Positions 24,268-64,000 of a stretch of DNA of 64,000 nt are shown here, piece after piece; position 1 is the stretch's first letter, and each line of letters begins with the position of its first letter. Where the stretch lies: NCBI GenBank assembly GCA_963792415.1, contig CAWBVY010000001.1:62025-126024 (forward strand), given 5' to 3'. Position numbers and translations under genes: made by a program. Source of the stretch: Candidatus Deferrimicrobiaceae bacterium. Lineage in GTDB: Bacteria > Desulfobacterota > Deferrimicrobia > Deferrimicrobiales > Deferrimicrobiaceae. Below the pieces are notes generated by a model that had not been told where the DNA came from, made no database searches, and was given only the letters and a program-made list of their open reading frames with translations.

Positions 24268-24271
<4 letters not shown>

Positions 24272-25656: not shown

Positions 25657-25702
25657 CGGCGCACTCCAGCGCCGCACAGGAGAATCCGCGGCAGGGAAAC
25701 CG

Positions 25703-48614: not shown

Positions 48615-48779
48615 CCTCCCGCCGCGTCGAATCCGGAATTACACCTTCATTCTATTAAGCATTTCAGGGGTGTGGAAATCAACCGAAACATGTAGAAAAA
48701 GACAGCAAAGTTTCACGCCACCGGCCCAACCGATACGACATATATTATCGGGAATACAAAGGGAAGGGACCGAAAAACC

Positions 48780-49440
48780 GACTTGAACAAGGGTACTGGA
48801 CACCACCGGGGGACCAGGGACCGTCGAAGAGGATGCTGATCGAACTGCTCTCGGTCTTGTCGAGGGTCTCCCCGCCGCATACTTCGCGATCGTCTGCCTC
48901 GGTTTCTGGAAGAGCTTCGTCCAGACCGGCAAGTGGACCTCCCTGCTCGTGGAAAAATGGATGGGTATTGATGTGCCGAATTGGCTCCACTGGTTTCGGA
49001 GGGACTCTGATCATCCTCCTGCTCGTGTTCCGCCGGGAGTCGCGCCGGCTCTCCCTGCATCCGTGGGACTGGATCGTCGCCCTCGGGGGTTCCTTCACCG
49101 TCCTGCTGGTCCGTCCCGCGGCGGCGACGGTCGTCCCGGAGTTTCTCGGCGTCGCGCTCATACTCGCGGGAACCGCGTTCGAGATCTATGCGAAGATCGT
49201 TCTCGGGAGAAGTTTCGGAATCGTGGCCGCAGACCGGGGGATCGTCGTGGAGGGACCGTACCGCATCGTCCGGCACCCCATCTACTTCGCGCGGAGAGGG
49301 CCACCCTGCTGGTCTGGTTGAGGGTATCATTGGCGTCCGTACACGGAGGTGTTCCGGAGTTCATCCCCGTGACCAATTGCCTGTTCATCAGCATCCTTGC
49401 GCCTCTCTGCACGAGGATGACGGACTTTTCCCACAGCCCG
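48780..49440 (+). pseudogene. Degraded isoprenylcysteine carboxyl methyltransferase / phospholipid methyltransferase-family gene, with at least 2 frameshifts
   Basis: The family motif …VVEGPYRIVRHPIYFA… and TM segments are in frame 1 (48833-49321). The N-terminal TM segments (…GLVEGLPAAYFAIVCLGFWKSFVQTGKW…) and the continuation after RHPIY are in other frames. It sits in a lower-GC patch. Confidence 0.5.
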
Positions 49441-49762
49441 TAGCGCCAGCAGACTGTAAGACGTGGGAGCAACCCAGGAATGACATCGGCGGTCAGGATC
49501 ACCCACGAATGGAGTATCCTGACATGGGCCAATTCTGCTTCTCCAGTGTTCCCCGAAGTACTTAATAGAAATTCACCGCGCGATTCATATTTCTTATGCC
49601 GTTCGGACCACGCCATGCACATCGTCATCTATTTTTTCCAGATTTCGAGGATCCTGTAGTGCCCCGAGGAGCGGATTCTCTCGGAGGACGCCGCGTAGTC
49701 CCCCCCGGGACCCATATCGCGGGCGCGTCCGCTTTCGCCTGATCCCGGGGTCTTCTGACCCT

Positions 49763-50637
49763 TCACGAAGGGGCGACGAACACGAAGGGGTACAGGACTT
49801 CCACCGTGCGTCCCGCCGGCGGCTCGAAGGTCCAGCGACGGACCTTGGCGAGGACGACGTTCACGAACGCGGTGTCGGAGAAGGACCCGTCGGCCGGTTC
49901 GGCGCCCTGGACCTTCCCCGAGGGGTCGATGCGGAAGCGAACGAGCAGCTTCCCTCCAAGGTCGGGGTTTCGCCGGATCGCGTCGGCGTAGACCCCCTCC
50001 AGTTCGGGCAGGCGGTCGCGCACCCGTTTCCGGATCATCTCGCGGATCCAGGCGGGGATCGGCTCCCCGGCGGTGTCCCCGGCCCCCCCGAACATCATCG
50101 ACGCCTCGGTCTCCTTCCCGAACCCCACGCCGGGTCTGCCGGACGCGCGCACGCGGGCCTCAAGTTCCTCAAGGTGCTTCCCCAGGGCCGCGGTCCTCTC
50201 GGGTGCGACGGCGGGGGCGAAATCCCCCGGCCTGGCGGGGCCATCGTTGGTCCAGTGGCGCACCGGGATCCCCCCCGCCTTCCCCTCCCGGCGGGTGACC
50301 GGCGCCTCGGGCACATTGGCCATCCCCGCGTCGAGTTTCTCGAGCCACCGCCTTGCGGCGGGGGGCGCCTTCGGGGCGGGACGGGTCGAGGCCGGCCTGT
50401 CGGAGGACGCAGGAAAGAGTCGGGCCGGGCCGACGACGCGACCGGAGGCGGAGGCGCCGGCAGCTCCTCCGGAAGCTCCGACATCGGCAAATCGGTCAAT
50501 TCCACAACCACCGGCGGGGAGAACCTCATCGTGGGAAACAGCGGCGATATGGCGGACCCCATGACGAACACCACGAGGTGGACCGCGACGGAGAGGATCA
50601 TCATCTTCCGGATGATCCGCTCCTGACGGCGCGACAT
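49763..50637 (-). CDS. TonB-family energy transducer (TM anchor, Pro-rich spacer, TonB_C), with an apparent frameshift in the spacer (around 50395-50410)
   Basis: The N-frame reads MSRRQERIIRKMMILSVAVHLVVFV…PPVVVELTDLPMSELPEELPAPPPPVAS…. The C-frame reads …RRWLEKLDAGMANVPEAPV…LPELEGVYADAIRRNPDLGGKLLVRFRIDPSGKV…VLYPFVFV. Start alternatives are 50664 and 50679. Confidence 0.65.
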
Positions 50638-50686
50638 CCCGTTGATCTCCTGGTAGATGTTCATCTGGAAACCGTTCATCGTCGGT

Positions 50687-51991
50687 TCACAGCTCCGTGA
50701 AGTAGTCCCTGCACGCCCGCTCCACCAATTCGTTGTCCAGCCGGGAGGGAACCCCCTCGTACCGGCAGATCTCCACGACACGGCTCAGCACGTCGTTCGG
50801 GTGGCAGGCGCTCAAGCGAACCCCGCGCCTCGGGTGCTCCTCGTCCAGCAGATGGCGGATGACCTCCGGACGGAACGGAAGCCCCACGCGCTCGCACACC
50901 TGGCGGCAGATCCCGATGTACTCCTCCTCCCCCAGGTAGTCGATCTTGATCTTGTACCCGATCCGTCGCAGGAACGCCTCGTCGGCCAGCTCCCGCGGAG
51001 CGATGTTCGTGGAGAAGAGGATGATCTGGTCGAAGGGGATCTCGAACTTCTTCCCGTTCTGCAGTGTCAGGAAGTCGCGCGCCTTTTCCAGGGGGACGAT
51101 CCAGCGATTCAGCAAGTCGAAGGGGCGGACCAGCTGCCGCCCGAGGTCGTCGATCAGGAAGACCCCCCCGTTGGCCTTCACCTGGAGGGGCGCCTCGTAG
51201 AACTTGGCGATCGCGTCGAAGCTCAGGTCGAGCATCGCCAGCGTCAACTCCCCGCCGGAGACGATCACCGGGCGTTCGCACAGGACCCAGCGGCGGTCGT
51301 ACTCCGTCCGTTCGGTGAGGACGGCCTGCGCCGGGTCCATCGGCTCTCCGAGATCGACGCGGGAGTGGTTCACGGGGTCGAACACGCGGATGACCTGGTT
51401 GTCCACGCAGATGGCGTGGGGGATGAAGACGTTCCCGCTCATGACCTTCGCCAGCCGCTCGGCGATGAACGTCTTGCCGTTCCCGGAGGGCCCGTAGAGG
51501 AAGATGGAGCGCCCGGAGTTGACCGCGGGGCCCAGGCGTTCCAGCAGGCCGGGGGTCAGGATGACCCCCTTGAAGGCGCGGTCCATCGACTCGCGGTGGA
51601 CCGACATCTTCCGGACCGTCTGCTTCCTCGCCACCTCCGTGTACTGCGCGAGGGTGACGGGGGCCGCGCCGAAGTACCCGGAGAGCTGGAGGTACTCCCT
51701 GGCCCTCTCCCGTCCGAGGTCGGTGAGGGCGTGCGTGTACGCGGCGCGGATGTCCCCGCCCTTCTTCACCTCGGCCAGCCGCTCCTTTTTCATGAAATCC
51801 ATCACGTCGTTCGATACGCTGACGGGAAGCGCAAGCTGCTCGGAGATGGACGACAAAGACATCACGCCGCCGAAGTAGAGGGTCTTGCAGGCGAGCTCCA
51901 CGAGGAACCCGAGGGAGAGCCCGGTCTCCTCGACGGTCTTCGGCGACCTGGGCACTACGGACACGCGGATCTTGCGGGTCTCTTCAGTCAA
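50687..51991 (-). CDS. AAA+ superfamily ATPase of unassigned family
   Basis: Walker A GPSGNGKTFIAERLA, Walker-B-like FLIDDLG and a sensor region. TTG start with an AAGGAG RBS 6 nt upstream. The 80-aa N-terminal extension in the table ORF is R-rich and spurious. Confidence 0.65.
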   Translation of the reverse strand: MTEETRKIRVSVVPRSPKTVEETGLSLGFLVELACKTLYFGGVMSLSSISEQLALPVSVSNDVMDFMKKERLAEVKKGGDIRAAYTHALTDLGRERAREYLQLSGYFGAAPVTLAQYTEVARKQTVRKMSVHRESMDRAFKGVILTPGLLERLGPAVNSGRSIFLYGPSGNGKTFIAERLAKVMSGNVFIPHAICVDNQVIRVFDPVNHSRVDLGEPMDPAQAVLTERTEYDRRWVLCERPVIVSGGELTLAMLDLSFDAIAKFYEAPLQVKANGGVFLIDDLGRQLVRPFDLLNRWIVPLEKARDFLTLQNGKKFEIPFDQIILFSTNIAPRELADEAFLRRIGYKIKIDYLGEEEYIGICRQVCERVGLPFRPEVIRHLLDEEHPRRGVRLSACHPNDVLSRVVEICRYEGVPSRLDNELVERACRDYFTEL

Positions 51992-52282
51992 TGTAGGCTC
52001 CTTGTTCCGTGATTGCACCGGCCGGCGAAGATCCCGTCGGGATCTCCCGTGGAAGAACCGGCCGCGCCATGTCCGTGAGGAACAGATCGTAACGGACGGG
52101 GGATGGAATCGTGGTTCCCCGGCCAACGGGGAGATAAAGGACCCCGGGCTTCTCCCGGAGGCCGCGCACTTCCAGTTCCTCCATCCGGAGGGAGTGCGGC
52201 CCGCCGCCTGCGGCCGGCCTTTCCGCCGCAAAGCCGGGGGCGGCGGCGAGAATACAGAGCGCGAGGAACACGACTGCGCGCC

Positions 52283-55200
52283 TCATGGTCCCTTCCCTTC
52301 CTTCGCCTTCGCCGTCATCGTCTCTTCCAGGAGCGCCTGCGCGGTCTCCAGCCGCTTCCGGATCGGAACCGCGAGGTCCGCGGGCCCCTTCTCGTCCTCG
52401 AGCCGGTCCAGCGCGCCGGCGTACCGGTCGAGGGACCGTTCGTAGAACGATCGCGCCCGATCCCGCAACGCCTCCTCGTATCCATCGCGGTCGTCCCCTT
52501 TCAGACCTTTCGGCCGCTGGGAGGCGAGGATCGCCTTCCCGTACTCCACGAGGAGATCGCCGGATAGAAGAGAGGCCTGGAGCGCCACCTCGAGAGGGGC
52601 CTCGCTCTCCGCCTTTTCGAAGTCGCCGAGAGCCCGCCGGAAGAACCGGTCCTTGATGGCGAGACTCTTCTCGAGGGGGACACGGAGGGGCGTCTTGCGG
52701 AACTGTTCGGCCCAGTTCTCCCCGACGGCGATGCGAACCTTCCCCGCCAATTCCGCGAACTCCTCGGGCGCCTCCGCTTCCACGCCCGCGTCCGCTTTTC
52801 GCAGCCCTTCCTCCATCAGGCGGATCGACGCCTTCGTCTCCCCCCGCCGCCAGCCGGCCAGCCCCGTGTACAAGGTGGCGTACGTCCACTTCCAGCGTGG
52901 GTCCGCGTACCGCGCGCGATAGGCATTGAAGCGCTTTTCCGCCGCCCCGGGAGGGCCGTGCTCTTCCGCGAGGCGCGCGGCGTGGAAGAGGAACCGCGGC
53001 GCGGCCTCGCCCTTCGGGAACCTCTCCGCCACGGCCTCGTAGAGTTCCCCGGCCTCGGCGAACTCCCCCTTCTCCTCGAAGAGGGGGCCGACCACGCTCG
53101 CCACCTCCACGGTTTCCTCCCTTCGGGGAAACTCTTTCCGGAAACGGAGGCCGGAACGGATGGCCCCTTCCGGATCCCCCCCCTTTGCGTACAACCGCAT
53201 CGCCCGGAGCAGGTAGATCGGGACCTCCGGCGCCCCGGGGAAACGGATGGAGACCTCCTCGAGCACGGCCGCCGCGCCCGACAGGTCTCCCGCGGCCTCC
53301 TTTCCACCCGCCTCCTTCAGGGAGGAGAGGAGATAGAGATCCTTCGCCCGGGCGCCTGCGCCGGCCCCGACCGAGGGGTCCGAAAGGACGACCGAAGACC
53401 CGCTCCTCGCGGCGACCACATTCCCCTCGAAGAGGGCGGACTCGGCCAGAACCAGGCGAGCCTGGGCGGTCTGCGCCGGGGTGGCGTACCGGCTCCTCTC
53501 GACTTCCGCCGCTACGCGCCGCGCGCGATCATTCTCCCGGGCCGACAGGAACGCGCTCGATGCCCGAAGCCCGAGGGAGGCCGACTTTTCGGAGGGATGT
53601 TCCTCGAGAAGAAGCAGGATGGCGTATTCCGCGCCCCCGGCGGGCGTCTCCTTCCTCTCGTACCCGGCGATCATCGTCTCCGCGTACAGGACGGCCGCCC
53701 GCTCCCCGGTGGCGTCCGACCTCCGCTCTCCCACCAGTTTTTCGAGGAGCAGCACCCCGCCTTCCCGGTCCCCCGAGCCGAGGAGAGCGATGGCCCACTT
53801 CAGGCGAAGTTCCCCATCCCCGTCCGACCGGTCATCCCCCTTCACCAGGAAATACTCCCTCGTCAATGCGGCGGACGAGGAAAGCGCCGAGCGTTCCCCG
53901 GAGCGGATCCCCTCGTCGAATTTTTTCCCGGCGAGGGTCCTGAGCATTGCAGCCAGTTCCTTTGCGGTCTTCTCTCCGACCGGGGCCGGCTGCGACCGTG
54001 CCCAGGCCGAATCCGGTCCGTACTTCCCGCGCAGGGTCAGGGCGCGGTCGAGCGCCTCCCTTTCCCGCCCGACCCGCAGGAGCGACTCCACCGTCTCCAT
54101 TTCGAGGGCCGCAGCGTTCGCGTCCGACGGGAATCGCCGGGCCGCGACGTCGCGCACTTCCGCCGCCCGCAAGGCCTCGCCGCGTTTCTCCTCGGCCTCC
54201 CAGAGGGCGGCGAGGAGGACCTTCCCGCCGCACGTCCCGGCGTTCACGGGGGGGTACGCGTCCAGCCGTTCCAGGGGCGCCTCCCTCCATGCGCGGACCG
54301 AAAGGGAGACGACCTCCCTTTCGAAGGGCGACGGGACACCGCAGGGGAACGAGGGATCGGAAAGGGGTCGGGACAATTCCCGGAGCGCCCCGCCGGCATC
54401 CCCGGACTGGAACCGGACCCAGGCCAGCATGTACCTGGCGACGGCGGAAGCGTCCGGGTTCCCGGCATCCGAGGCCGCGCGGTACCGTGAGATCGCCGCC
54501 GCGGTATCCCCGGCCAGGAGCGCCTCGTGCCCGAGGCGGACTCCGATCACGGCGGAGAGCGGAGAGGCGGGGTACTTCTGGAGGTACTCCCGCGCGGCGG
54601 ACCCGGCGCCCGGGTCTTTCACGGCCAGCCCCAGGGCCGCTCGCAGGTAGAGTCCCTCCTCCCGTCTCGCCCCGGAAACCCCTTCCCGCGGGAGGAGCGG
54701 GAGAACGCGCGCGATCAACTCCTTCTCCTTCTCGTCGGCTTCCGTGCCCGGATACCGTGTCCACCGGTCCCTTCCCTCGGAAAGAACGGAGCCGATCCCG
54801 ATGGCGACGTCGGGCGCGTCCGCCGGCGCGAGGCGGTCGCCGGTCAGGAGGGAAACCGCGCGTCCGAGGGCGGCGAGGGATTCCCCGTGGGCCGGCTCTC
54901 CCGGCTCCAACCGCAGCCGGCGGGCCTGTCCGATCAGGGCGTCCGCCAGCTGACGGTCGACCACGGCAAGAAGGGCGAGCAACTCCGGCTTCCTCCGCTC
55001 CCAGGCGGCGGCCCGCTCCCTTTCCTCCAGGGTTCGCACGACCGGAAGGAGCGCGGTCACGCGGCCGTCGGCGTACGCGATCGATTCCCGCATCACATGG
55101 TCGAGGGGATCCTCCGCCGGCTCCTGCTTCTTCCTCAGGATGTCGAAGTACTGCTTCGTGAAATCCCGCGTTTCGGCGGCCATGGACCGGATCTTGTCCA

Positions 55201-56656
55201 GCTCGTTCAGGAAGAGTCCCACGTCCTTCAGGAGTCCGGGGGCGGTCCCGTCCCTGCCGGTCTCGATGGTGGCTACGGTCGCATCCCGCCGCTCCCGGAT
55301 CCGCTCCCGGAGAAGGTGGATCTCTTCCTGGCTCTTTTCCAGGCGCGTGAGGCGGCGGTATCGCTGGATCGGGTGGCCGAGGTTCTGGAGGGTATCGAGC
55401 GTGGCGGCCATCCGCTCCACCAGGCGGTCGACCTCGATGCCGTCCAGGGACACCTCCTCGATCCTCCGGACGATCTCCGCGATCTCCTCCGCGGTGAGGA
55501 ACCGGAGACCCTCGGGGGACGGCGTGTCCGCCGCTGCCAGGGAGACCGTCCGGTCGGCAAAGAGCATGCCGACCAGGAGTTCCACCACCTCGGCGCGCGC
55601 CGACGCGTCCGGCCCGGGCTCCCGCCAGGAGAGTTCCTGCCGGAGGGCCCGCAGCATCTCCATCTGAAGCCGGAGGGACTCGACGGTTTCGGAACGGCCC
55701 GACGGCTCGGAGGAAGGAGGCGACGGCACGGACAATGCGTCTTCCAGCTCCTTTCCTGCCCGGGTCAGGCGGTCGACCGCCGTCTCGTCGCGCCCGCTTT
55801 CCCTTGCGAGCCCCCCGAGAAGGAGGAGGAACCGGACCCGGTCCTCGAGGGGCCGCCCGGCGATCATCTCGGCCGGCAGATGGTCGAGGGCATGCACGGA
55901 ATTGTCCCCGGCGGCGGCCAGGCCGATCCGGTCCAGCGGGTTCTTCTCTTTCCACAGCAGGGCCTCGAACAGTGGCACTGCCTCGGGGCCGCGTCCGGCC
56001 GCAAGCAACACTTCCGCCCGCGATCTCGATGCCCTCGCCGCAAGAAAGTCGCTCCATTCGCTCCTCCCGGCCTCTTCTTCCACGCGTTGGAAGAGGTTCA
56101 GCGCCGTCGAGGTTTCCCTCCCCTCGGAGGCGATCTGGCCGAGGGAGTACAGGGCGAGGAGCCGGTACGGCTCTTCCGTTCCGACCTGGGCCAGGATGGC
56201 GGAGGCATCCCCCAGCCGTCCCCGGATCCGCCGCAGCCCCGTGCCGTAGGAATACAGGATCAGGGGCGTCCGGATCCCGCTGCGGATGGCGGTCTCGCAG
56301 ACCGCGACGAGGCGTTCGGGATCGTCGTATCGTCCCTGCGCGCTGACGACTTCATCGAAGAGCGGCGCCGCCGCCGTCGCCGGGAACACGCCCAGGCCGA
56401 CCCTCCGTTCGAGAAGCGATGCCGCTTCCGCAAGGAGCCCCAGGGACATGTATCCCTTGAAAAGGGAGCGGGTGCCGTCGATGGTCACCGCGTCGGACGC
56501 CTCGAGACGTGCCATTTCGGTGAGGGAGACGCCGGCACTCGCCGGGAACGGGATGGCAATAACCGAAAACAGGATCGCGCAGGCGAGGAAAGAGAGGAAG
56601 GGTCGTCCGGCGGCTATGGGGGAGAGGGTCGTTTCACGTTTCGAATTGGATTTCAT
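52283..56656 (-). CDS. Very large (1457 aa) secreted TPR/alpha-solenoid protein
   Basis: Signal peptide (…FLACAILFSVIAIPFPASAG). Continuous non-biased alpha-helical repeat sequence over 4.4 kb. GAGG RBS. Confidence 0.7.
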   Translation of the reverse strand: MKSNSKRETTLSPIAAGRPFLSFLACAILFSVIAIPFPASAGVSLTEMARLEASDAVTIDGTRSLFKGYMSLGLLAEAASLLERRVGLGVFPATAAAPLFDEVVSAQGRYDDPERLVAVCETAIRSGIRTPLILYSYGTGLRRIRGRLGDASAILAQVGTEEPYRLLALYSLGQIASEGRETSTALNLFQRVEEEAGRSEWSDFLAARASRSRAEVLLAAGRGPEAVPLFEALLWKEKNPLDRIGLAAAGDNSVHALDHLPAEMIAGRPLEDRVRFLLLLGGLARESGRDETAVDRLTRAGKELEDALSVPSPPSSEPSGRSETVESLRLQMEMLRALRQELSWREPGPDASARAEVVELLVGMLFADRTVSLAAADTPSPEGLRFLTAEEIAEIVRRIEEVSLDGIEVDRLVERMAATLDTLQNLGHPIQRYRRLTRLEKSQEEIHLLRERIRERRDATVATIETGRDGTAPGLLKDVGLFLNELDKIRSMAAETRDFTKQYFDILRKKQEPAEDPLDHVMRESIAYADGRVTALLPVVRTLEERERAAAWERRKPELLALLAVVDRQLADALIGQARRLRLEPGEPAHGESLAALGRAVSLLTGDRLAPADAPDVAIGIGSVLSEGRDRWTRYPGTEADEKEKELIARVLPLLPREGVSGARREEGLYLRAALGLAVKDPGAGSAAREYLQKYPASPLSAVIGVRLGHEALLAGDTAAAISRYRAASDAGNPDASAVARYMLAWVRFQSGDAGGALRELSRPLSDPSFPCGVPSPFEREVVSLSVRAWREAPLERLDAYPPVNAGTCGGKVLLAALWEAEEKRGEALRAAEVRDVAARRFPSDANAAALEMETVESLLRVGREREALDRALTLRGKYGPDSAWARSQPAPVGEKTAKELAAMLRTLAGKKFDEGIRSGERSALSSSAALTREYFLVKGDDRSDGDGELRLKWAIALLGSGDREGGVLLLEKLVGERRSDATGERAAVLYAETMIAGYERKETPAGGAEYAILLLLEEHPSEKSASLGLRASSAFLSARENDRARRVAAEVERSRYATPAQTAQARLVLAESALFEGNVVAARSGSSVVLSDPSVGAGAGARAKDLYLLSSLKEAGGKEAAGDLSGAAAVLEEVSIRFPGAPEVPIYLLRAMRLYAKGGDPEGAIRSGLRFRKEFPRREETVEVASVVGPLFEEKGEFAEAGELYEAVAERFPKGEAAPRFLFHAARLAEEHGPPGAAEKRFNAYRARYADPRWKWTYATLYTGLAGWRRGETKASIRLMEEGLRKADAGVEAEAPEEFAELAGKVRIAVGENWAEQFRKTPLRVPLEKSLAIKDRFFRRALGDFEKAESEAPLEVALQASLLSGDLLVEYGKAILASQRPKGLKGDDRDGYEEALRDRARSFYERSLDRYAGALDRLEDEKGPADLAVPIRKRLETAQALLEETMTAKAKEGKGP

Positions 56657-56978
56657 CCCCGACCTCGGTCCCCGTTCTCTCGATGGTGCCCGCCGGCAGC
56701 TCGAGGACCCCCCGGGCGTTCCAGAAGACCCTGGAAATGCGGTTCCTGCGGAACCGTTCGTACCGTCCCACCACCTTCCCGTCCGGACCGAGAAAGAGCG
56801 CGTCGAACTCGAAACGCATCCCGAAAGAGTGGATGCTGTTGCACGGCCGGATCCAGAGCCCCTCCCCCTCCGCGAGCCCGTCGGTCCGGAGGAGCCCTCT
56901 CATCCGCGGGAAGAATCGGTCCGCCACCCGGACGGCGTCGCCGATGACCCGCCCCCGCGTGAGGTTCCTGACGATCAT
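56634..56978 (-). CDS. DUF192-domain protein (COG1430)
   Basis: 114 aa with conserved DUF192 features (…GLW…PCNSIHSFGMRFEFDALFL…). Confidence 0.6.
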   Translation of the reverse strand: MIVRNLTRGRVIGDAVRVADRFFPRMRGLLRTDGLAEGEGLWIRPCNSIHSFGMRFEFDALFLGPDGKVVGRYERFRRNRISRVFWNARGVLELPAGTIERTGTEVGDEIQFET

Positions 56979-57005: not shown

Positions 57006-57101
57006 CTACTTTTTCCCGGTCCGCCGGGACCTTACGTAGATGTAAATCGCGAGAACGACACAAAAAACAACGATCCAGGGAAGGGCATTGCCCAGATCCA
57101 T
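57006..57101 (-). CDS. Small single-TM membrane protein, 31 aa (MDLGNALPWIVVFCVVLAIYIYVRSRRTGKK)
   Basis: AGGAGG, then 6 nt, then ATG. Hydrophobic helix followed by a basic C-tail. It overlaps the tadC 3' end in another frame. It was hidden in a long spurious table ORF. Confidence 0.55.
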   Translation of the reverse strand: MDLGNALPWIVVFCVVLAIYIYVRSRRTGKK

Positions 57102-58084
57102 GTCCGACCTCCTTTGTTGGTTGCCACGGTCATTTTTGAATAGAGCGGAAAAAGTATCCTCAAGACCTGGATGACACCCGGCCCGAGAATGACGATGAAC
57201 AACGCCGGGAACATCAGGAACACGAGCGGGAATACGAGCTTGATGGTCGTCTTCGCCGCGGCCTCTTCGGCCTTCTGCCGACGCCGCATCCGCAGGGAGT
57301 CGGAGTGGACCCGCAGGGACTGCGCGAGGCTCGTCCCCAGTTTCTCCGTCTGGATCAGCATCGCAACGAGGGACTTGACGTCCTCCACCCCGGTTCTTTC
57401 CGTAAGAGCCCGCAACGCATCCTGCCGGGGTTTCCCCGCCACCATCTCCCGGTTGACGATGTCGAACTCTTCGCTCAACGCGGGACTGGAAAGCTTGAAT
57501 TCCTCCGTGATCTTTACGAAGGAGGCGTTCAGCCCGAGGCCCGCCTCGACGCAGACGACCAGCAGGTCCAGTCCGTCCGGGAGGGAGTCCGTGATCTCCT
57601 CCTGGCGCTTGCGGATCTTCGCTCGAAGCACGAAATCCGGAAGGAGAAACCCGGCGATTCCCGCCACGAGGACCATCAGGAAGATCGACTTGCTCGCAAT
57701 CCCGGTGACCTTCCCGTAGACCACGGCAAGGACCACCAGAACGACCGGCAACGCCCAGCGAACCCCAAGGTAGATCTGATACGCTCCCGAGCTCCGGATC
57801 CCCGCCTGGTTCAGGAGGAGGCGTCCGCCGGTAAGTTCCTTCCCCGAAAGCATCTCCACAAGTTCGATTTCCGTGGGCGCTTTCGCGGAAAACCACTTCC
57901 GTACCTTTCCGAGCCACTCTCCCGCGGATGCCACAATCCGGCCGCGGGGAGCGTCCGCCTCCTCCCCCACGATCTCCTTGAACCGTTGCGGCAGCGACTC
58001 CTTCCGGGATTCCAGCCACAGGTACAACCCGATCGATCCGATTGCCGTCGCCAGGAAGATCGAAACCGACAAGAAGAGAATCAA
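57032..58084 (-). CDS. tadC: Tad/Flp pilus assembly protein TadC (T2SS-F family)
   Basis: 350 aa polytopic GspF-like protein. The C-terminal about 25 aa overlap the small ORF and may not all be real. Confidence 0.8.
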   Translation of the reverse strand: MILFLSVSIFLATAIGSIGLYLWLESRKESLPQRFKEIVGEEADAPRGRIVASAGEWLGKVRKWFSAKAPTEIELVEMLSGKELTGGRLLLNQAGIRSSGAYQIYLGVRWALPVVLVVLAVVYGKVTGIASKSIFLMVLVAGIAGFLLPDFVLRAKIRKRQEEITDSLPDGLDLLVVCVEAGLGLNASFVKITEEFKLSSPALSEEFDIVNREMVAGKPRQDALRALTERTGVEDVKSLVAMLIQTEKLGTSLAQSLRVHSDSLRMRRRQKAEEAAAKTTIKLVFPLVFLMFPALFIVILGPGVIQVLRILFPLYSKMTVATNKGGRTWIWAMPFPGSLFFVSFSRFTST

Positions 58085-58097
58085 GGGTTCCCCCGTC

Positions 58098-59060
58098 TCA
58101 GATCTTGATCCGGATGATCTTGCGGATGGCCAGCATCCCGAGGATCTGCAGTGTCACGGCGATGGCGATCATGATCCTTCCGGTCCCCTCGAACCAAAGC
58201 GGTTTCAGGTACTCCGGGTTCATGATCCCGATGAGGACGGCCACTCCGATCGGAAGAAGCGAAAGGATGAATCCGCTCATTCGCGCCTGGGCCGTGAAGA
58301 TCTTGAGCTGTCCCTGGACGCGGAACCGTTCCCGGATCACATAGGCGATCTTGTCGATGATCTCGGCGAGGTTTCCTCCCGTTTCCCGCTGGATCAGGAT
58401 CGCCGTGACGAAGAACTTGACGTCGAGGATGTCGACCCGGTCCGTCATCCCGATGAGAGCCTGTCGAAGGGGAATCCCCAGGTTCTGCTCTTCGAACACC
58501 TTCGAGAACTCGGGGCCGATCGGATCCGGCATCTCCTGGGAGACGAGCTGGATGGCGCCCGTGAACGAGTGGCCGGCCCGCAGGGAGCGGGCGAACATTT
58601 CGAGCGCTTCCGGGAAGTGATTCATGAACCGTTTCAACCGGCGTCGCCGCCTGATGTCGACGATGAGGTTGGGAACGGTGAGCAGGCCGATGCCGACGAC
58701 GACCGACAGGATGGTTGGCCAGTGCAGGATGCGGCCGGCAACGATGCCCACGGAAAAGAGGACCAGGGAGAGGAGGAGGAACGTGCCCACCGGGATCTTC
58801 ATGTCCGCCTGCCGCAACCGCCGGTCGATCCTGGCGGCGATATTCACCCTCGACAGAAGCCGGTTGAGCAGCGGAACTTCGCTCAGCACCTCGTTCTTCA
58901 GGAATTCCGGAACATCCGCGTCCCGCAGGTTGCGGATTTCGAGCAGCGAGATCCTTCTCTTGACCTCCGCTTTCTCGCTGCGCCCGGCCGACAGGAGGAA
59001 GTACCCCCCGACAACCGCCAGGAGAACCAGCGCGAAGACGGCAATGGGGATCCAGATCAT
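58098..59060 (-). CDS. tadB: Tad/Flp pilus assembly protein TadB (T2SS-F family)
   Basis: 320 aa GspF-like membrane protein. Confidence 0.8.
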
Positions 59061-59073
59061 CCTCGGCCTCCCC

Positions 59074-60441
59074 TCACGATTTCCGGTTCGCGAAGATCTC
59101 GGAAGGGAGGTGGATCCCCGCCATGTGGATCATGTCGAGGAACTTCGGCCGGACGCCGCTTGCCCGGAACTGGCCGATGACCTTCCCCTCGGGATCGAGA
59201 CCCTGCTTTTCGAAGACGAAGATGTCCTGCATCACCACCACCTCCCCCTCCATGCCGGTCACCTCGGAGACCTTGACGATCTTCCGGGCGCCGTCGCTCA
59301 GGCGCGCCACCTGGATGATGACGTTCAGCGCGGCGCTGACCTGCTCCCGGATCGCCTTGGCGGGAAGTTCGAATCCCGCCATCAGGACCATGGTTTCGAG
59401 GCGGGAAAGGGCGTCCCGCGGCGAATTGGCGTGGACGGTGGAGATGGAGCCGTCGTGGCCGGTATTCATCGCCTGGAGCATGTCCAGCGCCTCGCCCCCG
59501 CGCACCTCGCCCAGGATGATCCGGTCGGGGCGCATCCGGAGGGCGTTGCGCACCAGGTCCCGCTGGGTCACGGCCCCCCTTCCCTCGATGTTGGGGGGCC
59601 GGGTCTCGAGCCGCACCACGTGCTCCTGCTGGAGGATGAGCTCGGCGGAATCCTCGATCGTCACGATCCGATCGTCGTTGGGGACGGAGGAGGACAGGAT
59701 GTTCAGCAAGGTGGTCTTGCCGGCGCCCGTGCCGCCCGACACCAGGATGTTGAGCCGCGCCCGCACCATCGCGTCGAAAACCTTCGCCATCTCCTCCGTC
59801 AGCGACCCGTTGGCGACCAGGTTCTCCATCCTCAGCGGGTCGATGCCGAAGCGCCGGATGGAGAGCGCCGGCCCGTCCAGCGCGAGCGGGGGGATGATGA
59901 CGTTGACGCGGGAGCCGTCGGGCAGCCGGGCGTCGACAAAGGGCGTGGACTCGTCGACCCGCCGCCCCACCTTGGAGACGATCCGTTCGATGATCGTCAT
60001 CAGGTGGTCGTCGTCCTTGAAGGTGACCTCGGTCTTGTGCAGCTTCCCGTGCTTCTCGATGTACACCTTCTCCGCCCCGTTGACCATGATGTCGGAGATC
60101 TCGGGATCCTGGAGGAGCGGCTCCAGGGGGCCGAGTCCCAGGGTCTCGTGCTGGATCTCGACGACCAGCCGCTCCCGCTCCATCCGGGTGAGCGGGATCC
60201 CCTCGGCGGCGATGAGGCTTTCCACGACGGTCTTGATGATCCCCGAGAGCTGCTCCGGGGAGATCTCGGCGACGGAGGAGAGGTCCAACCGGTCGATGAG
60301 CTTGCGGTGGATGCTGCTTTTGAGCTCCTGGTAGGCGTTCATCTCCGCCGCCGCGACGCTGCGGCGCTGCGCGAGGTCTCCGAACGCCGTGGCGGCACCG
60401 GCACCGTTTTTCTTCGACGCCATCCATTCGTTGATCGTCAT
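59074..60441 (-). CDS. tadA: Tad/Flp pilus assembly ATPase TadA/CpaF
   Basis: 455 aa with Walker [10 protein letters not shown] and Asp/His boxes of the T2SS-E/VirB11 family. Confidence 0.9.
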
Positions 60442-60442
60442 C

Positions 60443-61639
60443 TCACACGCCTCTCCGCCGGAAAAGGTTGTCCAGGATCCCCTTCTTCTTCTCCGGGACC
60501 GCCTTCTTCGGCGCCGGCCCTTCCAGCAGCTCCGCCATCCGGTCGAAGCTTTTGGTGACCTCCTTGTCCGGGGCGACTTCCGAGAGGAGCTTCCCGCGGT
60601 TGATGGAGGAGATCACGGTCGGGTAGTCGTTGGGAACGGAAAAGAAGACCGGGGTGTTCATGATCCCCTCGATGCTCTCCTTCGGGATCTCGTCGTTCGG
60701 AAGGTAGCGGCTGAGGAGGAGCCGCACCCGCTCGTCGCGCAGCCCGATCCGCCCGAAGAGCTCCAGGCACTTCTGGGTGTTCTTCAGGGAAGGGAGGTTC
60801 AGCAGGGACACGAGCAGGACGATGTCGGACATCTCCAGGGCCGTCAGCGTCCGCTCGTCGAACTGGTGCGGCGTATCCACGATAATGTAGTCGAACATCG
60901 ACCGCAGCGTCGAGAGGACCTCCCGCACCTGGGCCGGGGAGATCTGCTCCCCGTCCTCGATGGTCGGCGGGTCGGCCAGGACGTAGACCCCGCTGGCGTG
61001 CCGGACGAGGAGCGTGTGCAGGAAGTCGTAGTCGGCCTTCTCCGCGTTCTTCGCCAGGTCCAGGATGGAATAGGACGAGTTCACGTTGAAGAACATCGTG
61101 ACGTCGCCGTGGGAGAGCACGAGGTCGACCACGGCGACCTTTTTCCCCGTAAGCCGGACCAGGGCGTCCGCGAGGTTCACGGCGATCGTCGTCGTCCCGT
61201 TCCCCCCCTTGTTGCTGAAGACGGAGAGGATCTTCCCCCCGCGGCCCCCCGATTCCTTCCGGGTCGCCTTGAGCTTGGACGCCTTCTCCGCCGCCGCCCG
61301 GAGGTCGATCTCCTTGACCGGCTTGCAGAGGTAATCGTGCGCACCGGCGCGGATCGTCCGCAGGATGAGGTCGGAGTCGGTCCGGTCGGAGAGGGCGACG
61401 AGATACAGGAACGGGAAATCCTTCGCCATCGTGGAGATCGACTCGATCGCCGGTTCGGGGGTGGGGCCCAGCCCGATGATCACCATTTCGGGAAGGTGCA
61501 TCCGGATGATGTCGATGCCGGTCTTGACGGAGTGCGTCTTCCAGCGCACCTCGATGGCGCCGATCCGCTTGCTCAGGATGTCGATCTGCCGGATCGCCTC
61601 CTGGTCCGTCTCGATGATCAGGCAACTGATGCGGTTCAT
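60443..61639 (-). CDS. tadZ: Tad/Flp pilus assembly protein TadZ/CpaE (receiver-like N-domain plus MinD/ParA-type ATPase)
   Basis: 398 aa. The ParA-like P-loop is [14 protein letters not shown]. Confidence 0.85.
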
Positions 61640-61646
61640 TCCTCTC

Positions 61647-61988
61647 CTATTCCACCAGGGAGATGACTTTCACTTCCGTACCCGTGAGGGGACCGCCGCC
61701 GCCGCTGGAGGATCCGCCGAAGGCAGATCCGGGGATGTATCTTCCCGTCACGTAACCGTCTCCCCCTTGCCTCCCCACACCTTCGATCCAGAACCCGGCG
61801 AGAGTGTACCCGACCTGGACGGAGGCGCCCGTTCCCTGCGTTCCACCGGCGCCCCCACCGACGATGGGAATGCTCGGATCATAGATGACGACCCGAACGA
61901 CCCGGGGGGATCCCATTTCGTGGGTATTGGTAGCGTAGTCGCTCGGAAATGTTTGGCTGTAACCTTGCGCATTTGCATCATCGAGCAA
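61647..61988 (-). CDS. Gly-rich hypothetical protein (113 aa), possibly the frameshifted C-terminal continuation of the TadG-like gene
   Basis: Its frame is open from directly after the TadG-like stop (…GIRGFAR*/KVYEALLDDANAQGY…). No ATG start; TTG only. Confidence 0.35.
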   Translation of the reverse strand: MLDDANAQGYSQTFPSDYATNTHEMGSPRVVRVVIYDPSIPIVGGGAGGTQGTGASVQVGYTLAGFWIEGVGRQGGDGYVTGRYIPGSAFGGSSSGGGGPLTGTEVKVISLVE

Positions 61989-62826
61989 AGCCTCGTATAC
62001 CTTGAACGATCGGCCCCATAGCGTTCCCGGTCATCAGGTCGACGGGCAAGGACATGTCGATCGGGAAACACCCGCTGCTGATGAAAGTCCTCAGGTCGTT
62101 CGCGCCCTGAAACGTCTCTCCTCCCACGTTCCCCTGCATGAGGAAGAAATGCCCCGACGACTGTTGCCCGGAGGGGGAGTTATTGTCGGCGCTTGGAGAT
62201 CCCACCTTCAAGGTGATGGCAGCCCCGGGACACAAACCGACGCCCCCTGTGCAATCCTTGTAGATCGTCTCCCCGGGGGCGGGGGAACCGTCGTACTCGC
62301 CGTCGGGAGTCCCGTCACGGTTCGTTCCGTATGCCGGATCGTCAGCCCACGGGTAGGGGATCGCGAACGGCTTGATGCAGTTCACATTCGTCGGAGGGCC
62401 GGCCACCGCGGCCTGCGCCACGGCGCGCGCGGTAATCACTCGATTCGCCATCCCGAGAATCCGTGCGAAAAAGAGATTCGCGTTGCGGGAAGTGACCACT
62501 TCGATCCGGTCCAGCGAGGGAAAGGAGACGGCCACCTCGCCCGCGGGGTCAAGCCGCGTCCGCACCACCACGTCCCGGGACGCGTAATCCCTCGCGCGGG
62601 CGTCGGCTATGCCCCGGATGCTCGAATCGTTCCAGTCCCCGGTCGTAAAAGCGGAAGCGCCGGCCAACGCACCCGCATCGGCGCTGCGCTGGAGTTCGTG
62701 GCGAACGGAATACATGTGGCCCACGTCGATCCCGAGGGCCGCAAGGCCCAGGAGGACGAAAATGGCCAGAGCCACAAAAACCAGTATCTGCCCCTTTTCG
62801 TTTCTTTTCATCGTCGTACCCCTCAT
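61978..62826 (-). CDS. TadE/TadG-like pilus assembly protein (Tad_N domain)
   Basis: N-terminal MKRNEKGQILVFVALAIFVLLGLAALGIDVGHMY is the TadG N-domain. Confidence 0.7.
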   Translation of the reverse strand: MRGTTMKRNEKGQILVFVALAIFVLLGLAALGIDVGHMYSVRHELQRSADAGALAGASAFTTGDWNDSSIRGIADARARDYASRDVVVRTRLDPAGEVAVSFPSLDRIEVVTSRNANLFFARILGMANRVITARAVAQAAVAGPPTNVNCIKPFAIPYPWADDPAYGTNRDGTPDGEYDGSPAPGETIYKDCTGGVGLCPGAAITLKVGSPSADNNSPSGQQSSGHFFLMQGNVGGETFQGANDLRTFISSGCFPIDMSLPVDLMTGNAMGPIVQGIRGFAR

Positions 62827-62848: not shown

Positions 62849-64000
62849 CTACCAGATCATGTCCGGACTCAGCTCCTCGGGCTTCATCGTCTCCGAGGGG
62901 AGCGCCGGGATCTCGTCCTTGTTCAACGGACGGACGAGCTTCGGCGTGACCATCACCATCAACTCGGTTTCGTTGTTCTGGTACCTCGTGCTCCGGAACA
63001 GGGCCCCCAGGATCGGGATGTCGCCGAGAAGGGGGATCTTGGAGACCTGCTTCAGCACCTTGTTGTCGATGAGCCCTGCCAGGACGAACGTCTGGCCGTC
63101 CGCCAGCTGGAGTCCCGATTCCGCCTTGCGGGTTTTCAACGCCGGGATCCGGAAGCCCGAAAGGATGACGGCGTTGGCGTAATCAAGCTCGCTGACTTCC
63201 TGCGAGACGTTAAGATAGATCTCACCGTTCGGGGAAATCCTCGGCCGGAAAACGAGCTGGACGCCGAACTCCTTGTAGGTGACGGAAAAGGAGGACGTTC
63301 CCGTGCTCCCCGTGGAAATGACGACGGGGAACTCCCCGCCCGCCAGGAACTTCCCCTCCGCGCCGTTGGCGACGACGAGGTTCGGTTCGGCAAGGACCTT
63401 GAGCCCTCCCTTGTCGTCCAGAACGCGCAGGAACGCGGCGAAATCCGGGAACATTCCCGGCTTCGCGATGAAGACGTTCATCATGTCGCTGAACGAGGTG
63501 TTGGGCCCAATATCTCCGATTGCTGGTCACGGAGATTCCCGAAGGTGGGATTGAAATTGTTCGGGGGGCTCAAGGCGCCGCGAAGGGTGTTCCCCTCGAA
63601 CAGGTAGTTGAAGCCGAGCTCCTTCGAAATAGTGCGGTCGACCTCGGACACGCGGATCTGGAGAAGAACCTGCTCGAGCTTCTTCACCTTGAGGAGATTC
63701 ACGACCCCCTTGACGTGCGCCTGCGCGCCTTCCACCAGCCGGGTCTGGGTCACGTTGTCCGTAACCGTGCCGGTGAGGACCAGCTTGTCTCCGGCGGCGG
63801 TCACCTCGAACTCCTCCCCGGGTGCGATTTTCGTGAGATCCTCCCTCACGAGGTCCAGGTTGATCCCGACGACCACTTCGACCGTGGTGGCGACCTCCTG
63901 CTGGCTCCAGTAGACGAGCGTGGTCGTCCCGAAGGCCTTCCCGATGACCATCATCTGCCGGGGGGAGACGACCATGACGTCCGCGGTTTCCGGCCGTGCG
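62849..64000 (-). CDS. cpaC: CpaC/RcpA secretin of the Tad pilus, 5' end beyond the window, with an apparent 1-nt frameshift near 63500-63525
   Basis: The N-part (63481-64000) has the pilus-formation N-domain (…TADVMVVSPRQMMVIGKAFGTTTLVYW…). The C-part (62849-63484) is the secretin domain (…GLKVLAEPNLVVANGAEGKFLAGGEFPV…GDIPILGALFRS…). The two parts are in adjacent frames. Confidence 0.75.

Follow-up and report, generated by a model that had tools for sequence, protein, structure and literature searches.

Two putative accessory gene sets downstream of the Tad pilus genes in a Candidatus Deferrimicrobiota genome

A stretch of 64,000 nucleotides (the window) from a genome of Candidatus Deferrimicrobiota (MBNT15) was analyzed. 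Positions are those of the window, and loci of homologues are given as L numbers. In the direction of transcription, the following genes were located:

62849..64000, minus strand: cpaC/rcpA-type secretin, 5' end cut by the window edge
61647..62826, minus strand: TadG-like (Tad/TadE-G family) pseudopilin-like protein (Pfam Tad PF13400, 2.1e-13)
60443..61639, minus strand: TadZ/CpaE, receiver plus ParA/MinD-type ATPase (Pfam AAA_31, MipZ, ParA, Response_reg)
59074..60441, minus strand: TadA/CpaF secretion ATPase (T2SSE; PF00437-bearing orthologues 95-98% identical)
58098..59060, minus strand: TadB platform protein (T2SSF; PF00482 in orthologues, tblastn)
57032..58084, minus strand: TadC platform protein (T2SSF; Pfam T2SSF 2.4e-18, tblastn)
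57006..57101, minus strand: 31-aa single-pass membrane protein MDLGNALPWIVVFCVVLAIYIYVRSRRTGKK (10 relatives)
56634..56978, minus strand: DUF192 protein (Pfam DUF192, 6.1e-17)
52283..56656, minus strand: 1457-aa Sec-exported, all-helical TPR scaffold (Pfam TPR_19, TPR_21)
51984..52286, minus strand: 100-aa exported protein, signal peptide MRRAVVFLALCILAAAPGFAA/E
50687..51991, minus strand: 434-aa cytoplasmic protein, N-terminal MarR-type winged helix plus divergent classical-type AAA+ domain
49763..50679, minus strand: 305-aa TonB-family inner-membrane protein (NCBIfam NF033768)

For Tad/Flp membership, a T2SSE ATPase, two T2SSF platform proteins and TadZ are all present. TadZ is 93-96% identical to its orthologues. 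TadC orthologues stop near 57134, and the window ORF continues to 57032. The window covers CpaC from about residue 63 on, and Pfam Secretin matches were recorded on CpaC orthologues. By tblastn with the intact 443-aa CpaC of L009, cpaC was recovered in two frames, split by a frameshift near 63484-63556. The TadG-like protein (about 378 aa in relatives) is frameshifted near 61975-62027, its C-terminal 107 aa being read in another frame. The TonB-like gene is split by a 1-nt deletion near 50412, as seen against three orthologous DNAs. If real, the frameshifts in cpaC, tadG and the TonB-like gene would mean that the Tad system is decaying in this genome.

The first-pass annotation had described a Tad core lacking Flp pilin, prepilin peptidase and a small TadD. 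The window indeed holds no Flp gene, but its edge cuts cpaC, and Flp pilin genes, tadE and cpaB lie directly upstream of cpaC in 14 relatives. Every relative with upstream sequence has one to three Flp genes, followed by tadE, cpaB and cpaC. The Flp genes carry the G/xxxxEY motif, with PF04964 in L165. Judged by these relatives, the Flp genes are situated just past the window edge, beyond 64 kb, and the idea of a pilin-free Tad system was dropped. The annotation had named pilin and peptidase genes just outside the window as part of the evidence that would speak against its reading, which applies to the pilin but not to the peptidase: no Peptidase_A24 (TadV/CpaA) gene was found in the window, in L165, in L166 or, upstream of Flp, over 7.4 kb of L134. 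Since the prepilin peptidase gene may be encoded away from the locus in published Tad models (PMC6668835), its absence does not exclude Tad/Flp membership. A TadD-like small TPR lipoprotein was likewise found neither in the operon nor in the window or relatives; the reported absence of peptidase and small TadD extends to the relatives' loci.

The ATPase, TPR and TonB-like genes flagged in the annotation are all present on the minus strand, with a third-position GC of 0.85-0.91 and conserved orthologues. Two gene calls were revised. The 514-aa ORF assigned to the ATPase (50687-52231) is over-extended, orthologues of 434-449 aa aligning from the TTG at 51991. The TonB-like gene exists, but the 186-aa ORF taken for it (49763-50323) covers merely the C-terminal 60% of the 305-aa gene. 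Two short genes had been missed: the 31-aa membrane ORF between tadC and DUF192, whose counterparts in L001 and L165 are annotated with 32-36 aa, and the 100-aa gene between the TPR and ATPase genes. After correction, all genes lie on the minus strand and overlap or are spaced by 7-30 nt. The junctions of DUF192, TPR, small, ATPase and TonB-like genes are -23, -4, -8 and +7 nt. The DUF192 and TPR genes share 23 nt at the TPR start, the ATG of the 100-aa gene overlaps the TPR stop codon (ATGA), and the ATPase start overlaps the end of the small gene by 8 nt. At the same locus in L001, intergenic gaps are 1-49 nt. Terminator-like patterns within 48400-52400 did not exceed the count expected from shuffled sequence. 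Because the genes overlap or are spaced by 7-30 nt, the flagged genes and the tad genes were read as one operon, and gene order among relatives agrees with their assignment to the Tad operon. The flagged stretch closes, at the 3' end, one Tad pilus operon (type IVc, Flp) that comprises about 16 genes.

The order in relatives is Flp-tadE-cpaB-cpaC-tadG-tadZ-tadA-tadB-tadC-(tiny)-DUF192-TPR-small-ATPase-TonB-like. It was found, in full or as far as each contig spans, in L001, L004, L005, L007, L089-L161 and L165. From tadC to the TonB-like gene it is maintained down to 36-44% TPR-protein identity, and the adjacency of the TPR giant and ATPase to tad genes is conserved. Natural variants separate the genes. 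L009 and L161 carry tadC-(DUF192)-ATPase without TPR and small genes; L009 also lacks the TonB-like gene, and the L161 contig stops inside the ATPase gene. In L166, TPR-small-TonB-like are present and the ATPase is absent. DUF192 adjoins tad genes also in L020, L069, L071 and L161, and in Firmicutes (PMC12786226). Homologues numbered 95 for the TPR protein versus at least 8000 for the ATPase. The suggestion that four flagged genes constitute one module is contradicted by the variants with ATPase or trio alone. Lineage specificity, also suggested, applies to the TPR giant, the small protein and the TonB-like protein, but not to the ATPase and DUF192. Downstream of tadC, the operon carries two separable sets of putative accessory genes. 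Set A, old and widespread, consists of DUF192 and the winged-helix AAA+ ATPase. Set B is the TPR scaffold, the small exported protein and the TonB-family protein, and is lineage-restricted.

Within set B, the TonB-like protein consists of a cytoplasmic part of about 25 residues, a membrane helix, a proline-rich spacer and an AgmX/PglI-type TonB C-terminal domain. NF033768 (AgmX/PglI domain) scored 72.8-74.2 bits (cut-off 40; 1.8e-20), TIGR01352 27.6 bits on the fragment and 26.7 on the repaired protein (cut-off 27.1), and Pfam TonB_C 23.9 bits in the window and 26.2 in L001 (cut-off 24.6). In the membrane helix of the repaired protein, S30-x3-H34-x6-G41-x3-S45 was found, which is the spacing of the SHLS motif of E. 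coli TonB (S-x3-H-x6-G-x3-S). Its S-x3-H is invariant in L001, L004, L005, L006, L008, L165 and L166. Identity with GltG (NF033760, 52 bits versus 650) or GltJ (NF033761, 33 bits versus 450) was rejected, only the last ~90 residues aligning in either case. ExbB, ExbD, TolQ, TolR or AglRQS were found neither among the scanned window genes nor within 10 kb in L001, L004, L165 and L166.

The TPR giant carries a signal peptide. Its AF2 model (residues 258-1457, pLDDT 85.7) is essentially all helix and matched long TPR scaffolds of generic type. All 95 homologues are about 1,450 aa long. NCBIfam returned only weak YbgF- and BamD-type TPR matches; assignment to YbgF/CpoB was rejected (TIGR02795, 41.5 bits versus cut-off 90.1, residues 1156-1251 only), as was assignment to the TadD pilotins (1457 aa, no conserved lipobox, no TadD-type family match). 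The signal-region cysteine of the window protein is not conserved, and L001 is devoid of any. In the 100-aa protein, an MEE[LIV]EV[RY]G motif (here MEELEVRG) is invariant and the remainder divergent; searches among Pfam, NCBIfam and PADLOC families gave no match. By sequence, the motif resembles a TonB box.

No Pfam or NCBIfam family model covers the ATPase, which scored 17.9 bits against PF00004 (AAA; cut-off 21.2) and 22.6 bits against AAA_16 (cut-off 32.6). Four elements do not vary among 36 homologues: Walker A, a Walker B-like IDD, a sensor-1 Asn and an RR pair. PDB proteins are similar only in the region of Walker A and helix alpha-0, and the central AAA+ region is poorly modelled (pLDDT <50, residues 246-311). 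Assignment to ExeA/GspA was rejected on the lack of an AAA_22 or PG_binding match and on the MarR-type winged helix of the N-terminal domain. At least 1124 clusters (50% identity) match the protein, with 42-50% full-length identity across phyla. Scored as near Tad when at least two Tad core genes lay within 10 kb, it was so placed in 20 of 82 species-level loci, and in 14 of the 41 loci with at least 5 kb on each side. The linkage spans at least six lineages and three architectures, and was seen in Beta-/Gammaproteobacteria, Acidobacteriota, Nitrospirota, Desulfuromonadales and Chloroflexales. The architectures are A24 peptidase-ATPase-cpaB-cpaC... (Beta-/Gammaproteobacteria), ...tadC-ATPase (Vicinamibacteria) and an ATPase gene divergent to the tad operon (Nitrospirota, L013 and L035). 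In Chloroflexaceae, the ATPase gene is directly followed by a lone CpaF-type ATPase gene. In about 70% of sampled species, the ATPase is found in housekeeping neighborhoods (Roseiflexaceae, Thermomicrobiales, Geobacter relatives), and it may therefore have a role broader than Tad.

The explanation that we favor, and to which we give roughly even chances, combines DUF192 and a cytoplasmic ATPase on one side and an envelope trio on the other as two accessory sets of the Tad machine. The functions, protein-protein contacts, energy source and part in piliation that we infer are as follows. The ATPase most likely works at the cytoplasmic face of the Tad machine, with TadA/CpaF or the platform as possible targets for remodelling or regulation; alternatively, it could control transcription of the operon via its winged helix. 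For the TonB-like protein, the energy most likely comes from a proton-driven stator of ExbBD/TolQR/AglRQS type whose genes lie elsewhere. The C-terminal domain of the TonB-like protein would bind the TonB-box-like strand of the small protein and dock onto the TPR scaffold, so that the inner membrane would be linked across the periplasm with the outer-membrane or secretin end of the machine. The arrangement resembles, by analogy, GltG-GltF-GltD of the Myxococcus gliding transducer, and the trio may have a role like that of ExeAB and TadD in secretin assembly and anchoring.

Two other explanations are unlikely, in our view to a similar degree. According to one, ATPase and TonB-like protein act like ExeA and ExeB (GspA/GspB) and the TPR giant replaces TadD, CpaC being inserted and anchored through peptidoglycan without a proton-driven stator. 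ExeA and the TonB-like ExeB are needed for the ExeD secretin to assemble, ExeB binding the secretin periplasmic domain (PMC4098917), and TadD is necessary for Tad secretin assembly (PMC6668835). The lack of a TadD-like lipoprotein in window and relatives and the translational coupling of small, ATPase and TonB-like genes would fit as well. The ATPase, however, has no membrane helix, peptidoglycan-binding domain or AAA_22 match, it and the TonB-like gene each occur without the other (L009, L166), and it is found also in Chloroflexota, where no secretin gene was seen within 10 kb; moreover, a conserved lipobox cysteine is missing from the TPR giant. The other takes the winged-helix AAA+ protein for a DNA-binding regulator or general housekeeping remodeller that is often co-transcribed with Tad genes for regulation only and is non-structural. 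Its divergent position in Nitrospirota and its solitary occurrence amid housekeeping genes in most sampled species point in this direction. Against it stand the identity retained across phyla, unusually high for a pathway-specific regulator, the position between the peptidase gene and cpaB in Beta-/Gammaproteobacteria, the translational coupling to envelope genes in the window, and the lack of a sigma-54 activator GAFTGA motif on reading the ATPase sequence.

Somewhat less probable still is a pmf-driven TonB/Glt-type transducer grafted on the Tad pilus, with the ATPase as a phylum-spanning Tad component acting on CpaF/TadA. Here, force from the inner membrane would pass through the TonB-like protein, the TonB-box adaptor and a giant TPR shaft to the pilus machine, and this mechanical input might, for instance, serve to gate the secretin or anchor it, or to drive movement or retraction of the fibre. 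If true, this would be a hybrid of a type IVc pilus and the Myxococcus gliding motor core, and the ATPase would, independently of the trio, be a previously unrecognized cytoplasmic Tad component. Very improbable is a Tol-Pal/CpoB-type envelope-maintenance unit functionally unconnected to the neighboring Tad operon. In its favor, the C-terminal part of the TPR giant is similar to YbgF/CpoB and BamD, some homologues were given the name 'TolA-binding protein' by JGI annotators, and at L008 a TPR fragment is accompanied by the small, ATPase and TonB-like genes, no Tad gene being detected within 10 kb. But the MAG stretch of L008 is masked and rich in N, and its TPR ORF is truncated, the YbgF score is far below its cut-off, and in all other long-enough relatives the trio directly follows tadC-DUF192 with overlapping start, over the whole range of TPR identity given above.

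The favored explanation, with its two sets, bears on insertion and anchoring of the Tad secretin in lineages without TadD and on cytoplasmic factors controlling the bifunctional CpaF/TadA motor. As the ATPase gene lies within Tad operons of bacteria that are cultured and tractable, e.g. Marinobacter profundi PWS21 (L072), the protein is a concrete candidate for a new accessory factor and open to testing. With the trio, a TonB C-terminal domain combined with a TPR protein in the Glt/Nfs style would be known outside Myxococcota as well, and in connection with a pilus. The trio also bears on the origin of the core complex of the gliding machinery; in bacteria that do not glide, this core has been described as a complex of unknown function (PMC3169522). 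The lineage consists of uncultured, flagellum-less candidate iron-reducers, as described from the related genome SHF-111 (PMC9386147), for which pilus-mediated attachment to mineral surfaces would be ecologically relevant.

Among known systems, the Tad/Flp locus (flp-tadV-rcpCAB-tadZABCDEFG; Caulobacter cpa) has the same core in canonical order, as reconstructed from relatives. Flp, TadE, CpaB/RcpC, CpaC, TadG, TadZ, TadA, TadB and TadC are shared. The TadV/CpaA peptidase and TadD are absent from the locus here, and six genes are additional, namely those for the 31-aa membrane protein, DUF192, the TPR giant, the 100-aa protein, the ATPase and the TonB-family protein. With the TadD/PilW/MshN pilotins, the giant has in common that it is a TPR protein, here in a Tad operon otherwise without pilotin; TadD is roughly 250 aa long, and the giant is about six times its length and has no conserved lipobox. 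The ATPase is similar to classical-clade AAA+ proteins (NSF/Sec18, VAT/p97, spastin) at helix alpha-0 and Walker A. It differs in its MarR-type winged-helix N-domain and in a Walker A-to-B spacing of about 105 residues, compared to roughly 55 in classical AAA proteins. The likeness of the small protein to TonB boxes lies in a 7-residue motif, charged where classical boxes are hydrophobic.

ExeA/ExeB (GspA/GspB) likewise combine adjacent ATPase and TonB-like genes in a type IV filament-superfamily system with a secretin, and ExeB shares a proline-rich region and TonB resemblance with the TonB-like protein. ExeA, in contrast, is a membrane protein with a peptidoglycan-binding domain, while the ATPase here is soluble, with a MarR-type winged helix, and in most lineages is found without a TonB-like partner, unlike ExeA/ExeB.

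The G1 cluster of Myxococcus comprises gltD (1191 aa, TPR, signal peptide), gltE, gltF (89 aa, signal peptide) and gltG (TonB_C plus membrane helix) (PMC3169522). In an AlphaFold model, GltF touches the TonB C-terminal domain of GltG, which docks on GltD (PMC11761067). Differences from this system are the TonB-like protein without FHA or ZnR-GYF cytoplasmic domains, the absence of gltE, gltC and aglRQS nearby, the AAA+ gene between the small and TonB-like genes, and the attachment of the trio to a Tad pilus operon, not a gliding machine. The Nfs system of Myxococcus, a paralogue of Glt, was counted with the same comparison. The trio matches gltD-gltF-gltG of the Agl-Glt G1 cluster of Myxococcus xanthus in gene order and protein types, a likeness of architecture and gene order only: each has a giant exported TPR protein, an exported protein of about 90-100 aa without known domain and a membrane-anchored protein with a proline-rich region and a TonB C-terminal domain of AgmX/PglI type.

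Genes between 44.6 and 64 kb lay on the minus strand and showed strong third-position GC (window GC ~66%). The three ORFs noted in the first-pass annotation downstream of tadC, encoding an exported 1457-aa TPR protein (TPR giant, 52283-56656), an ATPase and a TonB-like protein, were real genes; the latter two had been mis-delimited. ATPase orthologues (63–94% identical, 434–449 aa) gave full query coverage starting at a TTG at 51991, so the ATPase gene was assigned to 50687-51991 and not to 50687-52231. The 186-aa TonB-like ORF covers only the C-terminal portion of a gene encoding 305 aa. In tblastn with the orthologue from L001, a relative's locus, residues 1-89 aligned at 50679-50413 and residues 89-306 at 50416-49763, in a different frame. 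DNA alignment against three orthologues placed one absent base near 50412, and the repaired protein was full length. Also overlooked was a gene for a 100-aa protein with a canonical signal peptide (51984-52286; "small protein"), the ATG of which, at 52286, overlaps the TPR stop codon (ATGA) and which ends 8 nt within the ATPase gene. After correction, the successive junctions between DUF192 and the TonB-like gene measured -23, -4, -8 and +7 nt. The count of terminator-like patterns in 48400-52400 was not above shuffle expectation, and no RNA family was found within the window with Rfam at gathering thresholds. That the flagged genes are transcribed together and act as accessory parts of the Tad system is, in our view, well supported.

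The TonB-like gene was one of five genes broken within 16 kb. The other four, each compared with intact orthologues, and one further overlooked gene are as follows:
63484-63556, single-base frameshift in cpaC
61975-62027, single-base frameshift in the tadG-like gene
48797-49689, plus strand, single-base frameshift in a PEMT/ICMT-like gene
47833-47871, single-base frameshift in birA
57006-57101, minus strand, overlooked gene between tadC and DUF192 for a 31-aa single-pass membrane protein (consensus LPW..VL.IY.YVRSRR)
Because the essential birA was broken as well, indels in a long-read assembly are a likelier cause than pseudogene formation; true degeneration of this genome's Tad locus is the less likely explanation. 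The 31-aa ORF was present in all close relatives examined, was called as a 32–36-aa gene in L001 and L165, and matched no known family.

The locus had initially been described as a Tad core with no Flp pilin, prepilin peptidase or typical small TadD in the window. The 64-kb window contained neither Flp motifs nor an A24 peptidase or CpaB, and its edge cuts the CpaC secretin at about residue 63. The region past 64 kb was inferred from loci of relatives, the closest being L134 (95–98% protein identity). Relatives (L134, L089, L090, L097, L101, L106, L109, L125, L138, L154, L161, L009, L165 and L166) carried tadE, cpaB and between one and three Flp genes upstream of cpaC. The absence of the pilin is a window-edge effect. 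Of the pilin and peptidase, whose presence just beyond 64 kb the first-pass annotation had named as evidence against its proposal, only the pilin was recovered: upstream of Flp, L134 carried genes for propionyl-CoA carboxylase and methylmalonyl-CoA mutase, and L165 and L166 contained no A24 gene. A TadD-like small TPR lipoprotein was encoded in none of these relatives' loci.

The conserved gene order was tadG-tadZ-tadA-tadB-tadC-(tiny ORF)-DUF192-TPR giant-small protein-ATPase-TonB-like. It was kept in L001, L005 and L007 (84–92% ATPase identity), in L004 (68% ATPase and 36% TPR identity) and in L165 (44% TPR identity), in which the entire 17-gene array was annotated; L006 spans only the part from the TPR to the TonB-like gene. 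L008 was set aside as a Tad-free occurrence, being a weak data point with a region masked by N runs and a truncated TPR ORF. Homologue names and taxonomy placed the organism in Candidatus Deferrimicrobiota, formerly MBNT15; the related genome SHF-111 has been described as flagellum-less and as that of a likely iron reducer (PMC9386147).

Natural variants divide the flagged genes into two separable groups. In L009 the ATPase gene directly follows tadC, and TPR, small and TonB-like genes are absent. L161 has the order tadC-DUF192-ATPase without TPR and small genes, the locus ending inside the ATPase gene. L166 has DUF192-TPR giant-small protein-TonB-like, with merely 44 nt at the ATPase position. 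The TPR giant family was lineage-restricted (95 matches, nearly all of ~1,450 aa). DUF192 also occurred beside Tad genes in L020, L069, L071 and L161, and has been found at the end of Tad operons in a Firmicute genome analysis (PMC12786226). In several relatives the operon extends past the TonB-like gene with a ~520-aa polytopic membrane protein (4-nt overlap, no Pfam match), a methyltransferase and a GT2 glycosyltransferase; in Nitrospirota and Pelobacter the same membrane-protein and GT2 pair adjoins the ATPase, DUF192 and tad genes (regions: L001 12227-15363; L005 12333-18202; L166 14967-17401; L020 7207-9574; L071 5662-9795). These genes may constitute a pilin or envelope glycosylation set, which is absent from the window.

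The ATPase is a 434-aa protein with a winged helix (MarR-type) and a divergent AAA+ domain. A word-indexed search returned at least 8000 matches, and an exhaustive search with E <= 1e-30 gave 1124 clusters (50% identity). Relatives are encoded in at least 590 GTDB species. No family in Pfam, NCBIfam or PADLOC was matched at threshold. Among 36 homologues, Walker A (GPSGNGKT, 167-174), IDD (280-282), STN (327-329) and RR (342-343) were invariant. Sequence similarity to solved structures did not extend beyond the Walker A region in the classical AAA proteins Sec18/NSF, VAT, spastin and p97. Some family members (for example P0224, P0239, P0260, P0290 and P0345) are 550–800 aa long, with extensions of 100–380 residues N-terminal to the winged helix. 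Two readings are put forward: the ATPase may remodel or regulate CpaF/TadA or the platform, or it may be a winged-helix DNA-binding regulator. A sigma-54 activator was rejected, as no GAFTGA motif was seen on reading the sequence and the DNA-binding-like domain, of MarR type, sits at the N-terminus; a defence system was dropped, PADLOC having given Walker-A-level matches only.

At least two Tad core genes were located within 10 kb of the ATPase gene in 20 of 82 species-level loci, which were those matching the query profile best and not a random family sample, and in 14 of the 41 loci flanked by 5 kb or more on each side. A locus was counted as Tad-proximal only when it had two or more Tad core genes; PEMT and TadZ matches in or near the ATPase gene were antisense or receiver-domain artefacts and were ignored. 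Three architectures were observed: A24 peptidase-ATPase-cpaB-cpaC...tadZABC (Sulfuricella, Methylotenera, Nitrosomonadales, Marinobacter profundi and other Gammaproteobacteria), ...tadC-ATPase (Vicinamibacteria, L009), and a divergently oriented ATPase gene (Nitrospirota). Chance proximity of a random gene to a ~12-kb locus was estimated by us at the order of 1–2%. The observed 24–34%, spread over at least six lineages, argues for a functional link between ATPase and Tad which is not obligate. In Roseiflexaceae, Thermomicrobiales and Geobacter relatives the ATPase gene lay among housekeeping genes (aat, htrA, clpB, dinG, macB-type ABC). In two Chloroflexaceae MAG loci (L053 9890-12838; L070 9893-12838) a T2SSE ATPase of CpaF/TadA type, its N-terminus rich in Pro and Ala, is encoded by a solitary gene ~20 nt after the winged-helix AAA+ gene; the pair is situated amid the housekeeping genes rpsB, frr and uppS, with no further Tad genes nearby. 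Directly upstream of the ATPase in L033, L039, L040, L045 and L071 (Nitrospirota, Thermodesulfovibrionales, Pelobacter), a recurrent ~560-aa protein (cluster c63), for which the sole match was a weak one to sigma-70 region 3, holds the position that the TPR giant and small protein have in the window.

The proposal of a lineage-specific accessory or adhesion module was therefore not borne out for the ATPase, whose large family recurs near Tad genes in at least six lineages. From the initial description we retain the genes, with corrected bounds, and their membership in the Tad operon, and not their unity as one lineage-specific module. The combination of accessory genes is new, the Tad system itself is of known kind, and the ATPase family is unnamed and widely conserved. 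A literature search for Tad-linked AAA+ or TonB-like accessory proteins returned nothing specific.

The TPR giant carries an N-terminal signal sequence and was 100% identical to the TPR protein P0121. The model of residues 258-1457 was confident (pLDDT 85.7) and essentially all-helical, with a TPR solenoid flanked by long helices. Foldseek matches in the PDB were generic long scaffolds (Ski3, Ctr9, IFT-A, OGT) with TM-scores of 0.1–0.2, none family-specific, and the only sequence matches were to TPRs of YbgF/CpoB-like and BamD-like kind, at scores well under the family cut-offs. A lipoprotein pilotin was rejected, the Cys not being conserved. The small protein diverges fast except for two short motifs, one of them MEE[LIV]EV[RY]G near the N-terminus of the mature protein; by position and alternating pattern, this one is a putative TonB-box-like motif. 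The TonB-family protein comprises a cytoplasmic stub of ~25 residues, a membrane helix with S30-x3-H34-x6-G41-x3-S45, a proline-rich spacer and a C-terminal domain scoring 72.8–74.2 bits with the NCBIfam AgmX/PglI tail model (cut-off 40) and at the thresholds of TonB_C models. S-x3-H was invariant in divergent orthologues, and the spacing matches that of the SHLS motif in E. coli TonB. Stator genes of ExbBD or TolQR type were absent from the window genes scanned and from within 10 kb in L001, L004, L165 and L166. The TPR giant, small protein and TonB-family protein (the trio) could plausibly make up a connector of TonB type that spans the periplasm and links the inner membrane to the Tad machine's outer-membrane end, for assembling or anchoring the secretin or for transmitting force.

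Elsewhere in the window, a GGDEF diguanylate cyclase gene was identified with Pfam (24268-25677, minus strand), and a second ORF (41579-43018, minus strand) is probably GGDEF by synteny with a GGDEF gene of L004. One of the two is located 7 kb downstream of the Tad operon, where the block is syntenic with L004. Tad pili are under c-di-GMP control in other bacteria, and the gene near the operon could be relevant in this respect. A ComEC-type competence channel gene (Competence and Lactamase_B domains; 25703-28078, minus strand) adjoins uvrBC. The remaining window contained housekeeping genes (glyQS, icd, ndk, sucCD, mdh, cysS).

In protein types the trio mirrors gltD, gltF and gltG of the Myxococcus G1 cluster, which comprises gltD (a TPR protein of 1191 aa with a signal peptide), gltE, gltF (89 aa with a signal peptide but no domain) and the proline-rich gltG with TonB_C and a membrane helix (PMC3169522). 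In an AlphaFold-based model of the gliding machine, the TonB C-terminal domain of GltG is touched by GltF and docked on GltD (PMC11761067). The TonB-like protein scored 52 bits against GltG (cut-off 650) and 33 bits against GltJ (cut-off 450) and had no FHA or GYF domains. As it falls outside GltG/GltJ and the TPR giant compares with GltD by analogy only, the parallel concerns the way of working and not family membership. ExeA and ExeB, an ATPase and a TonB-like protein, are required for assembly of a type II secretin (PMC4098917); the ATPase described here differs in being without the defining features of ExeA and in being separable from the TonB-like gene.
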